A model generated the notes under the pieces. It worked only from the letters and a program-made list of their open reading frames with translations, did not search any database and was not told the origin of the DNA. Of a stretch of DNA of 64,000 nucleotides, positions 52,910 to 57,143 are shown one piece after another. The DNA lies in the NCBI RefSeq assembly GCF_002854065.1, contig NZ_CP024147.1; one strand, given 5' to 3'. The position numbers were made by a program, and so were the translations under genes. The stretch's first letter is position 1. Each line of letters starts with the position of its first letter. Source of the stretch: Escherichia coli. Lineage in GTDB: Bacteria > Pseudomonadota > Gammaproteobacteria > Enterobacterales > Enterobacteriaceae.

Positions 52910-54295
52910 TTACTTGCCTGTGACCGCTGCTGCTGTTCCTGGCACCATCAGCTCTGTAGCAACGATAACAATCACCAGCCCAACAAGCACCGGCACCGAG
53001 GTGCGTTTTACGACTTCAAATGGTGAGATTTTCGCCATCCCGGCAACCGCAACGACTACGCCAGAAACGGGCGAAAGGGTACGGCCGAGGTTTGACGCCT
53101 GCAGCATCGGGATAGTCAAATACGCCGGGTTAATGCCGGAAGAGTGCGCCAGTTTCGGGATCATCTCAACAAACGCATAAAACGGCGCATTGCCTGAACC
53201 GGTCGTGACTGCCGCCAGCATTGTCAGAATCACCAATACCAGCATCAGGATGATACTCGCCGAACCAAACGAGGTAGCGATAGAAATCAGACTTTGAATA
53301 AAGCCGATGGTGCTAAGCCCCTGAGCGAATACCCCAGCGGCAACCAGCAGCATCACCACGTTAGCAAACGCATCTGCCATCCCGCGATAAGCCACTTCCA
53401 GACCAGAGAAAACTTTCTGGGTATTAAAGCTGCGGAGGAACTCCAGAATGGAGGCAATCAGCATACAAATCACCAGAATAGTGATGATGTGTAATTGCGG
53501 ACCCCATTTACCGTCAAAAATCAGTACACCGATGATCGGCGTGAACGGCAAAATGGCATAAAACGCAGGAGCAGTGGTGGTGATTTCACTGACATCTAAC
53601 ATTTCATGAGAGATGTGCTCTTTTTTATCCAGATAACGTTGCCAGAAGAAGTGGGCGATCGCCATGCCGATAATTGCAGCAATTGAGATAGGCAGCGTCG
53701 TTTTGAAGGCGAAGTCAATCAGCGACATTTCGGAAGCTTGCGCCGCCAGCACCACATCCCCTGAAGTCGGTGCGAGAATAATCGCCGCCGGGGAGGCACA
53801 AATGGCAGCTGCTGCCCCACGACTGATACCAACGTTTACCATCACCGGAAACAGGGTTGCCATCAGCAAAACACCCAGACCGGTTGCGGAAGAGACGGCC
53901 AGTGACATCAGACAGGCAACAAAATAGGCGGCAATCATCAGCAGGTAGGGGGAGTTAATATACTGCAATGGTTTTGACGCCAGCTTGACCACCATATCAT
54001 TCGCGCCGATATGGGTCATGTAAGCGGCAAAGCCACACAGCATCATAATCATCATGCCGAGGTCGCCGCCGCGGCTCATTAGCAATATTTTAACGTATTC
54101 AACGATATCCGTGGCGCTGTAGCCTGTTGAAGCTTGGCTGGACGGTAACACTTTGTGCCCCATAATGGCACTGATAATCAGCAATAACAGGCCACCGACA
54201 AATAACACACCAGTGGCGGAATACCCTTTAATGATGTAGCGAGCTACACCCACAATAACCACAACCCCAATAAGGAGTTCAATGAATGTCAGCAT
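52910..54295 (-). CDS. dcuC: Anaerobic C4-dicarboxylate transporter DcuC
   Basis: 461-aa polytopic membrane ORF matching recalled DcuC. Confidence 0.9.
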   Translation of the reverse strand: MLTFIELLIGVVVIVGVARYIIKGYSATGVLFVGGLLLLIISAIMGHKVLPSSQASTGYSATDIVEYVKILLMSRGGDLGMMIMMLCGFAAYMTHIGANDMVVKLASKPLQYINSPYLLMIAAYFVACLMSLAVSSATGLGVLLMATLFPVMVNVGISRGAAAAICASPAAIILAPTSGDVVLAAQASEMSLIDFAFKTTLPISIAAIIGMAIAHFFWQRYLDKKEHISHEMLDVSEITTTAPAFYAILPFTPIIGVLIFDGKWGPQLHIITILVICMLIASILEFLRSFNTQKVFSGLEVAYRGMADAFANVVMLLVAAGVFAQGLSTIGFIQSLISIATSFGSASIILMLVLVILTMLAAVTTGSGNAPFYAFVEMIPKLAHSSGINPAYLTIPMLQASNLGRTLSPVSGVVVAVAGMAKISPFEVVKRTSVPVLVGLVIVIVATELMVPGTAAAVTGK

Positions 54296-54880
54296 AATTT
54301 TTCCTGTCTCCAGGCCCCAAAGTAAATAATAAAAAATTCCTAAAGCTTAAGGAAAAAATATGCCCAATAAATTGGCGGTGGATGCTGATTAAAATCAAGA
54401 AAAACTGCCATTAAGACATTGAAGTTGCTGTTTTTATACGTAGATAACAAAACGCATATTTAGCGGTTGGCAATTATCACATAATAATGTGTGTAAATTG
54501 ATGGAGGATTGATGCAAATTTGTTAATCGCAATGGTGTTAGCTGCGGTTGCGTGCTCAGAAAATAATCTACCATGAGCATGGGTTGACGATATATATTAT
54601 ATGCTTCGTTAAGATGATTGTTGTATTTCATTGAAAAATAAAGAAATATTTCCTTGATTGCATTTTGTCATCAAAAAAGACTTGGTTTTTTTTTGACTAT
54701 TCCCATCGAAGAAAACGACGCATCATCTTTAATCGATGCGCGGAAATATTTAACTTAAACAAGCGGAAATAAATAGAGCAGCTATTCAGATTATTCTTTA
54801 TGTTGGGGCTATTAAGGTTATGTTAATTGTAGCTTTGCTATGCTAGTAGTAGATTTTTGATAAATGTTTTATGGTCACAA

Positions 54881-55441
54881 ATGAACGTGAGTAAATATGT
54901 CGCTATCTTTTCCTTTGTTTTTATTCAGTTAATCAGCGTTGGTAAAGCTTTTGCTAACGCAGATGAGTGGATGACAACGTTTAGAGAAAATATTGCACAA
55001 ACCTGGCAACAGCCTGAACATTATGATTTATATATTCCTGCCATCACCTGGCATGCACGTTTCGCTTACGACAAAGAAAAAACCGATCGCTATAACGAGC
55101 GACCGTGGGGTGGCGGTTTTGGCCTGTCGCGTTGGGATGAAAAAGGAAACTGGCATGGCCTGTATGCCATGGCATTTAAGGACTCGTGGAACAAATGGGA
55201 ACCGATTGCCGGATACGGATGGGAAAGTACCTGGCGACCGCTGGCGGATGAAAATTTTCATTTAGGTCTGGGATTCACCGCTGGCGTAACGGCACGTGAT
55301 AACTGGAATTACATCCCTCTCCCGGTTCTACTGCCATTGGCCTCCGTGGGTTATGGTCCAGTGACTTTTCAGATGACCTATATTCCGGGTACCTACAACA
55401 ATGGCAATGTGTACTTTGCCTGGATGCGCTTTCAGTTTTGA
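54881..55441 (+). CDS. pagP: Lipid A palmitoyltransferase PagP (CrcA)
   Basis: Track ORF 54857..55441; recalled PagP (186 aa) starts [25 protein letters not shown]. Confidence 0.9.
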
Positions 55442-55615
55442 GACAAATGAAGTTTTAGTAAATTCTTTAAAATCAATGAGTAAAATAATTAACATCAAAA
55501 ATAACGCGACTTTTATCACTTTTTAGTAAAGTTGCACTGGACAAAGCGTACCACAATTGGTGTACTGGTAACCGACACAGCATTTGTGTCTATTTTTCAT
55601 GTAAAGGTAATTTTG

Positions 55616-55825
55616 ATGTCTAAGATTAAAGGTAACGTTAAGTGGTTTAATGAGTCCAAAGGATTCGGTTTCATTACTCCGGAAGACGGCAGCAAAGACG
55701 TGTTCGTACACTTCTCTGCAATCCAGACTAATGGTTTTAAAACTCTTGCTGAAGGTCAGCGCGTAGAGTTCGAAATCACTAACGGTGCCAAAGGCCCTTC
55801 TGCTGCAAACGTAATCGCTCTGTAA
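55616..55825 (+). CDS. cspE: Cold-shock-domain protein CspE
   Basis: Track ORF 55532..55825; recalled CspE (69 aa) starts [20 protein letters not shown]. Confidence 0.95.
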
Positions 55826-56262: not shown

Positions 56263-56354
56263 TGCAAAATCCTGCTATTTGATTTGTATGAGTGATAAGT
56301 GTAACGCCGAATAATCGTCGTTGGCGAATTTTACGACTCTGACAGGAGGTGGCA

Positions 56355-57143
56355 ATGCTGGTTGCTGCAGGACAGTTTGCTGTTACATCTGTGTGGGAAA
56401 AGAACGCTGAGATTTGTGCCTCGTTGATGGCGCAGGCGGCGGAAAACGACGTATCGCTGTTTGTCCTGCCGGAAGCATTGCTGGCACGCGATGATCATGA
56501 TGCAGATCTATCGGTTAAATCAGCACAGCTGCTGGAAGGCGAATTCCTCGGACGTTTACGGCGAGAAAGTAAACGTAACATGATGACGACAATTCTGACG
56601 ATTCATGTTCCTTCAACGCCGGGGCGCGCATGGAATATGCTGGTGGCACTTCAGGCAGGAAACATCGTCGCCCGTTATGCCAAACTGCATCTCTATGATG
56701 CATTTGCCATTCAGGAATCACGCCGTGTTGATGCTGGTAATGAAATCGCTCCGTTACTGGAGGTGGAAGGGATGAAGGTCGGTCTGATGACCTGTTATGA
56801 CTTACGCTTTCCAGAGCTGGCGCTGGCACAGGCATTACAGGGAGCTGAAATCCTGGTACTTCCTGCCGCCTGGGTTCGCGGGCCGCTCAAAGAGCATCAC
56901 TGGTCAACGTTGCTTGCCGCTCGTGCGCTGGATACCACCTGTTATATGGTGGCGGCGGGGGAGTGCGGGAACAAAAATATCGGGCAAAGCCGGATTATAG
57001 ATCCCTTTGGCGTCACCATTGCGGCAGCGTCAGAAATGCCTGCACTCATTATGGCGGAAGTGACGCCCGAACGTGTGCGTCAGGTGCGCGCGCAACTGCC
57101 CGTCTTAAACAACCGTCGCTTTGCGCCGCCGCAATTATTATGA
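56355..57143 (+). CDS. ybeM: Carbon-nitrogen hydrolase (nitrilase superfamily) YbeM, apparently intact here
   Basis: Track ORF 56349..57143 (GTG start); the ATG at 56355 gives a 262-aa ORF matching recalled YbeM. Confidence 0.8.

Follow-up and report, generated by a model that had tools for sequence, protein, structure and literature searches.

The dcuC-pagP control region is already known, and its main inputs, FNR, PhoP, H-NS/SlyA as well as RcsB-GadE, are published. For the dcuC side, Myers 2013 (Table S6) gives the 14-mer CTGATTAAAATCAA at K-12 position 655,281 as the dcuC/pagP FNR site, reports FNR ChIP peaks at 655,298 and 655,340 and shows dcuC to be FNR-activated in K-12; the same study marks dcuC as ‘TSS not in peak region’ and lists the FNR motif itself without an H-NS ChIP signal. 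For the pagP side, dependence on PhoP/EvgA is cited for E. coli, while in Shigella PhoP binds a pagP upstream fragment in gel shift assays and pagP expression is PhoPQ-dependent. For Salmonella, the mapped pagP promoter has been assigned TATTAT as its -10, and the distance between PhoP site and transcription start was put by Harari et al. 2010 at 32 bp for E. coli crcA and at 44 bp for Salmonella pagP.

H-NS occupies two regions of the K-12 chromosome here, 654,590-655,558 and 655,584-656,283 by ChIP-chip, and the dcuC/pagP spacer was flagged for H-NS by gSELEX. Deletion of hns in K-12 derepresses pagP-lacZ 18-fold, SlyA counteracts H-NS, and Fig. S6B of Chalabaev 2014 places three putative SlyA sites at the pagP promoter. 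RcsB-GadE is a further input to pagP. In K-12, anaerobic sigma-70 ChIP-seq places only two peaks in the gap, 655,235 and 655,742. Finally, ArcA sites consist of two to five direct repeats spaced 11 bp centre-to-centre (Park 2013); the same study predicted an ArcA site in the gap with a position weight matrix (at least 15 bits) and found no ChIP binding at the locus. In an arcA mutant, expression falls for both dcuC (-4.1-fold) and pagP (-2.8-fold).

Here we describe this region in a stretch of 64,000 nucleotides of the E. coli contig NZ_CP024147.1, which is analysed as a whole and referred to as the window; positions are those of the window unless K-12 is named. The analysis places the published sites on the window at base resolution. 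We consider it very probable that the gap is a shared divergent dcuC-pagP regulatory region, made up of an FNR promoter, a PhoP promoter, an H-NS coating and drifting filler, and that it contains no separate gene. About 260 of its 585 bp carry AT-richness only and are under no sequence constraint.

Results

Extent and composition of the dcuC-pagP gap

The minus-strand gene dcuC (461 aa) starts at 54295 and runs down to 52910, and pagP (186 aa) begins with an ATG at 54881, the same start as in the RefSeq annotation; the gap between them therefore extends from 54296 to 54880 and measures 585 bp. It is flanked by dpiBA upstream of dcuC and by cspE and crcB downstream of pagP. In 200-bp windows, GC content is 0.30-0.35 in the gap versus about 0.47-0.57 in the flanking genes. 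An AT content well above the surroundings, as is typical of H-NS-type regions, is found likewise in all genera examined: the gaps of every genus have kept their AT-richness (GC 0.32-0.42 versus 0.51-0.57 in dcuC) but not their sequence. No ORF of at least 25 aa in the gap is conserved among nine Escherichia sequences, and seven E. coli strains already suffice to show that none retains its start or reading frame. Thus, the AT-rich, non-coding gap of about 585 bp that a preliminary description of this DNA had proposed from the letters alone is indeed what is found.

The central 261 bp carry no RefSeq annotation among the matches listed, which come from 5,379 E. coli genomes with a match, and 5,375 of 5,426 complete E. 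coli genomes contain them once, without annotation. Over positions 54200-54980, the window is 100% identical to E. coli strain CUWW06 and 96.4% identical to K-12. In E. coli strain 23AR1101 (locus L088, 3029-4203), an IS5-like element, ISKpn26, lies between dcuC and pagP and replaces essentially the whole intergenic region, so that pagP begins immediately behind the transposase gene. In laboratory strains, cassettes have been placed in the dcuC-pagP gap.

Some observations concern the neighbouring genes. PagP (54881-55441) evolves much faster than its neighbour DcuC (52910-54295), diversity at 4-fold sites within E. coli being 0.127 versus 0.075. Amino acid identity of PagP between E. coli and other Escherichia (cryptic-clade species and E. 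albertii) is 84-88%, and that of DcuC is 98% in two cryptic-clade loci. Downstream of crcB, ybeM (deaminated glutathione amidase, 56349-57143) is an intact ORF of 264 aa here and is annotated as frameshifted in the K-12 record. A match below threshold to RF01766, the cspA thermoregulator of Rfam (34 bits versus a gathering threshold of 78, E 1e-6), covers positions 55431-55700, in the spacer between pagP and cspE and the beginning of cspE, and breaks off where the searched sequence stops; it is plausibly a homologous cold-shock-type 5’ UTR of cspE.

Projection of K-12 data and constraint profile

The FNR 14-mer fixes the map between the two genomes: a window position equals the K-12 coordinate (older numbering) minus 600,896, with 3 more bases to be subtracted downstream of a T-run indel near 54694. 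All in vivo data used here are those of K-12, which differs from the window by 4% over the gap and by 7% in the spacer. On this map, the H-NS regions fall at 53694-54662 and 54688-55384, so that H-NS coverage takes in the gap and the greater part of pagP. The two sigma-70 peaks fall at 54339, in the predicted dcuC promoter, and at 54843, in the pagP promoter on the hexamer TATGCT, while both FNR ChIP peaks fall over the FNR box.

Constraint was profiled with seven E. coli alleles and two cryptic-clade Escherichia sequences, taking the 4-fold sites of dcuC and pagP as reference. The features that emerge from this profile and from the comparisons described below are collected in Table 1.

Table 1. 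Features of the dcuC-pagP gap, with diversity within E. coli (pi) and divergence to the cryptic clades
Feature	Position	Strand	pi	Divergence	Remark
4-fold sites of dcuC and pagP			0.075-0.127	0.43	Reference
dcuC promoter region	54296-54400	-	0.020	0.19	Reduced variation
Predicted dcuC 5’ UTR, about 55 nt	54296-54349	-			Start predicted near 54350 from the FNR box position
Predicted dcuC -10 CATATT (CACATT in other genera)	54357-54362	-			Inside conserved block AAAT(A/G)TGCC
FNR box CTGATTAAAATCAA	54385-54398				9/10 match to TTGAT-N4-ATCAA; its centre lies 96.5 bp upstream of the ATG of dcuC
Upstream block under constraint in Escherichia	54401-54529		0.019	0.23	About half the neutral value
Palindrome CACAT-AATA-ATGTG	54480-54493				Inside the constrained block
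Direct repeats TTGATG-N5-TTGATG-N5-TTGTTAAT, 11-bp spacing	54498-54527	+			Cross-genus pattern
Unconstrained AT-rich spacer	54530-54790		0.107	0.52
Terminator-like hairpin, the only one in the gap	54741-54718	-			Broken by substitutions in other E. coli strains
pagP promoter region	54791-54880	+	0.035	0.27
Candidate PhoP-type direct repeat TATTAAGGTTATGTTAA, TATTAA-GGTTA-TGTTAA	54810-54826	+			Repeat conservation and geometry
pagP -10 TATGCT	54839-54844	+			Aligns with Salmonella TATTAT and Citrobacter TATAAT or TACAAT
Predicted pagP 5’ UTR, about 30 nt	54851-54880	+			Length estimated from the -10 position

An FNR-dependent promoter at the dcuC end

A PagP scan with one genome per species yielded 80 loci, 48 of which have dcuC as the divergent neighbour with an aligned start codon. 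The length of the gap varies widely: it is about 270-300 bp in Klebsiella and Raoultella, 403 bp for the S. arizonae locus, about 460 bp in Citrobacter and 558-588 bp in Escherichia, with longer gaps elsewhere. An alignment of 13 gaps shows conserved islands that are promoter-proximal only, one at each end of the gap.

At the dcuC end, the block AAAT(A/G)TGCC and the palindrome CTGAT-N4-ATCAA hardly vary across genera. Forty-five of 49 species have the FNR box, and with the exception of one locus its distance to the dcuC ATG is 85-99 bp; in the window it is the very 14-mer reported for K-12. A Shine-Dalgarno sequence, AGGA (the reverse complement of 54302-54305), can be read 6 nt upstream of the dcuC ATG. 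If the centre of the FNR box is set at -41.5, the hexamer CATATT would span -12 to -7, and the dcuC promoter would accordingly be of the class II FNR-activated type with the start predicted in Table 1. We thus propose that under anaerobiosis FNR bound at about -41.5 would recruit RNA polymerase to the CATATT hexamer of a minus-strand promoter reaching from 54296 to about 54400.

The predicted dcuC start site is also spanned by a near-perfect 18-bp palindrome, TTCCTAAAGCTTAAGGAA (54337-54354). Only its two central bases vary among E. coli strains, and the palindrome is not preserved in the cryptic clades. It has 3 mismatches to TTCYTACA-N2-TGTARGAA, which we take to be the EvgA box.

A PhoP-type promoter at the pagP end

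At the other end of the gap, the best candidate for a PhoP site is the direct repeat TATTAAGGTTATGTTAA, which differs at 3 positions from (T/G)GTTTA-N5-(T/G)GTTTA. Consensus matching alone does not pick it out, because such matches are common in the AT-rich gap: 8 of this quality are present versus about 1.7 expected from the density in the window. The remark in the preliminary description that no clean PhoP box could be identified by eye was therefore a fair one. What singles out this repeat is its conservation and its geometry. A repeat of the form yGTTAAG-N4-yATTmA, followed after 12 nt by a TAnnnT hexamer, occurs in 60 of the 80 loci, across many genera. Here, TATTAAGGTTATGTTAA lies in direct orientation 12 nt from TATGCT, one of the spacings expected of a PhoP promoter (12 or 21-23 nt). 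From the position of this -10, transcription of pagP is predicted to start near 54851, 6-7 nt after TATGCT, which puts the centre of the repeat about 33 nt from the start, in agreement with the 32 bp published for crcA. The PhoPQ-regulated pagP promoter that had been suspected from the AT tracts of the gap is thus supported by the conserved repeat and by its distance to the start. The sigma-70 peak of K-12 at 655,742 (window 54843) is about 10-fold higher anaerobically.

In this strain, we infer that PhoP binds at TATTAAGGTTATGTTAA. PhoP-P would occupy the repeat, overlapping the -35 position 12 nt upstream of TATGCT, in a plus-strand promoter covering about 54795-54880, and transcription from near 54851 would produce a pagP leader of about 30 nt.

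H-NS coverage in K-12 and neutral drift of the spacer

Between the constrained parts of the gap lies a spacer in which diversity and divergence are equal to or above those of 4-fold sites (Table 1), and these about 260 bp therefore evolve neutrally or slightly faster. The spacer has no blastn similarity outside E. coli, and the short gaps of Klebsiella and Raoultella (270-300 bp) do not contain it. The allele found here is rare: identity to it reaches 99% or more in only 2 of 5,379 genomes and is 90-95% in 3,777 and 80-90% in 1,556. Between K-12 and the window, the spacer is 92.8% identical, i.e. 7% different, as compared with about 1% difference in dcuC and pagP. Neutral drift suffices to account for these allele differences, because the ratio of diversity to divergence is that of 4-fold sites. 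No counterpart of the E. whittamii spacer allele was found in E. coli genomes.

A decayed gene or mobile element was considered as the origin of the spacer and rejected, since blastn and tblastx against 80 related loci returned nothing and the spacer is single-copy in E. coli genomes. In some other genera, dcuC-pagP gaps of 900-1,000 bp (Kosakonia oryziphila, locus L057, 1477-2500; also loci L052 and L058) contain extra DNA with ORF fragments that resemble remnants of an RND efflux pump. One piece of 59 aa from these long gaps matches Pfam ACR_tran with E 2e-6 and 26 bits, just below the cut-off of 28, and the remaining fragments tested, those of L052 and L058 included, gave no Pfam match. With tblastn of ORFs from the longer gaps of other genera, no trace of an RND-type gene was detectable in the E. 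coli gap.

Most of the spacer lies within the K-12 H-NS ChIP regions, and we infer that it serves as an H-NS platform. That the region is bound by H-NS, as the preliminary description had supposed, is borne out by the K-12 ChIP-chip regions over the gap together with the 18-fold derepression of pagP upon hns deletion. Within the predicted pagP 5’ UTR, TTGATAAATG (54857-54866) matches 8 of 10 positions of TCGATAAATT, which we take to be the H-NS high-affinity motif; this match is weakly suggestive at most. For SlyA, the gap holds no match to the motif TTAGCAAGCTAA with fewer than 4 mismatches, and scans of the gap for SlyA, sigma-54, CRP, IHF, Fur, RcsAB, GAD box and ArcA motifs returned nothing above chance. 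We envisage that H-NS would coat the AT-rich stretch extending from within dcuC across the gap to pagP, silencing pagP, and that SlyA and RcsB-GadE would counteract it; the middle 260 bp would act as filler, whose AT-richness is kept while its sequence drifts neutrally.

A constrained block with 11-bp repeats next to the FNR box

Adjacent to the dcuC promoter is a block, 54401-54529, which is the only middle part of the gap that blastn aligns to the cryptic Escherichia clades (79%). It includes a short palindrome (Table 1). In E. whittamii, both arms of this palindrome are changed together, to AACAT...ATGTT, which is what one would expect if the dyad were a binding site or formed a small hairpin.

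Further along the block, three direct repeats start at 54498 (TTGATG), 54509 (TTGATG) and 54520 (TTGTTA), a number and a spacing that correspond to those of ArcA boxes (2-5 repeats, 11 bp). The pattern TTG..-N-TTGAT.-N-TTGTTAAT-N-TG is kept in Escherichia, Citrobacter, Enterobacter and Lelliottia at a distance of 85-140 nt past the FNR box, its conserved positions being separated by variable columns. As a reference for the sequence itself, we used the 15-mer GTTAATTAAATGTTA, which we take to be the ArcA box consensus. The best match in the E. coli gap has 10 of 15 positions, no better than in shuffled sequences, and thus falls short of this consensus; the Citrobacter match reaches 12-13 of 15. 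The PhoP-type repeat at the pagP promoter also scores 10 of 15 against the same 15-mer.

Judged by their pattern, the repeats are a candidate site that may bind an OmpR-family regulator, ArcA or PhoP, acting on one or both genes. A more specific proposal, that they form a shared distal OmpR-family site (ArcA or PhoP) coupling the anaerobic induction of dcuC and pagP, we put forward tentatively and regard as rather doubtful. Such an element could explain the ArcA dependence of both genes and, if the proposal is true, would link C4-dicarboxylate efflux (dcuC) with lipid A palmitoylation (pagP) under anaerobiosis.

Alternative functions of the gap

Three other readings would give the gap a function of its own. 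Firstly, the pagP strand could encode a separate small RNA, corresponding to ‘Ssr31’ of Shigella, or pagP could have a long regulatory leader. From a search for promoters and terminators, Wang et al. 2016 predicted Ssr31 in S. flexneri 301 as a unit of 295 nt that lies between dcuC and pagP and is oriented like pagP, and found it positive by RT-PCR; RT-PCR alone, however, shows neither a discrete nor a strand-specific RNA. In the window, a weak A-run/T-run hairpin at 54672-54697 on the plus strand is readable as a terminator, and RNA polymerase holoenzyme binds the spacer in vitro (gSELEX). Yet our promoter scan found no sigma-70-like site in the gap, K-12 sigma-70 ChIP-seq shows no peak between the dcuC and pagP promoters, and a permissive Rfam scan of 54000-55700 yielded no hit with E < 1 inside the gap. 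Fold z-scores of the middle are about -1.2 on both strands, and the region concerned is neutral and unalignable outside E. coli. The Term-seq tables of Adams 2021 point weakly the same way, showing no pagP or dcuC 3’ end under the limited conditions sampled there. As to a long leader, the conserved -10 implies one of about 30 nt. A small-RNA gene would be expected to have its own promoter and terminator and either conservation above neutral or a known RNA family, and the gap shows neither combination. The small RNA or regulatory leader that the preliminary description had allowed for is therefore not borne out: the predicted leader is short, sigma-70 peaks are at the two promoters only, the middle evolves neutrally, and the gap has no Rfam match, conserved terminator or stable fold. 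We consider this reading very improbable.

Secondly, additional working promoters could be situated in the middle of the gap, recognised either by sigma-54 (RpoN/NtrC) or by sigma-70 at ‘constitutive’ sites deduced from gSELEX. The gSELEX peaks of RpoN holoenzyme and NtrC in the dcuC/pagP spacer are at 655,760, but this position corresponds to window 54861, on the known pagP promoter and not mid-gap, and the best matches to TGGCAC-N5-TTGCW have 3 mismatches (3 found versus 3.0 expected). RpoD gSELEX suggested ATGACA-17-AATTAT for dcuC and TTAAGA-17-TAAAAA for pagP, both within 54609-54671; these hexamers are motif guesses in a neutral segment, their -10 hexamers differ here (TATTTC and TGAAAA), and no in vivo sigma-70 ChIP peak is seen mid-gap. 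Such promoters are thus very unlikely.

Lastly, a hidden small protein gene is extremely improbable: although mechanical ORFs of 28-65 aa are present in the gap, among them the candidates considered here (a minus-strand ORF of 65 aa at 54434-54631 and plus-strand ORFs of 34-35 aa within 54654-54772), the 65-aa ORF has no Shine-Dalgarno sequence upstream, lacks the ATG in K-12 and is interrupted by a frameshift or a stop in 4 of 6 other E. coli strains, the 34-35-aa ORFs have TTG starts, stops in other strains and no cryptic-clade counterpart, RefSeq annotates nothing over any of them, and this loss of frame conservation effectively refutes the reading.

Discussion

The shared divergent regulatory region is therefore the reading we retain. 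Taken as a whole, the preliminary description is supported in its main reading, an H-NS-bound and PhoPQ-regulated pagP promoter, and not supported in its suggestion of a small RNA or leader; it missed the FNR-dependent dcuC promoter, in the other third of the gap.

The closest system is the K-12 dcuC-pagP (crcA) region, which is the same locus with the same order, dpiBA-dcuC / pagP-cspE-crcB. No base differs from K-12 in the FNR 14-mer, in the second PhoP half-site or in the -10, and one differs at 54808, just upstream of the repeat. The K-12 gap measures 588 bp versus 585 bp here, the T-run being 3 bp longer in K-12.

The pagP promoter of Salmonella enterica (architecture IV, Zwir et al. 2012) is orthologous and has a single PhoP-dependent start with a short leader. 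The aligned -10 is TATTAT in Salmonella and TATGCT here, and the half-site TGTTAA is common to both. The footprinted Salmonella box, CTGTTTATAGTTTGTTAAG, ends 23 nt from the -10, whereas in E. coli the distance is 12 nt, the repeat lying nearer to the -10 by one half-site. The 403-bp gap of the S. arizonae locus does not contain the E. coli spacer.

On the dcuC side, the comparison is with class II FNR promoters such as those of dmsA and yfiD, which like dcuC combine a near-consensus TTGAT-N4-ATCAA with a -10-like hexamer at the -41.5 spacing; in K-12, FNR is reported to occupy the site by ChIP and anaerobic induction to depend on FNR, and dcuC is a predicted member of this class.

As a long stretch of AT-rich, H-NS-bound DNA, the gap also resembles the upstream regions of pagC and ugtL, which are H-NS-silenced and counter-silenced by SlyA/PhoP, and long ‘sensory integration’ regions such as the 750 bp upstream of gadE. 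It differs from these in that pagP is ancestral, not horizontally acquired, and in that its PhoP site is promoter-proximal and in direct orientation. Unlike in the pagC, ugtL and gadE regions, most of the DNA upstream of pagP is free of sequence constraint. What pagP shares with all of them is the convergence of several activators on one promoter, here PhoP, SlyA, RcsB-GadE and, via PhoPQ, EvgA.
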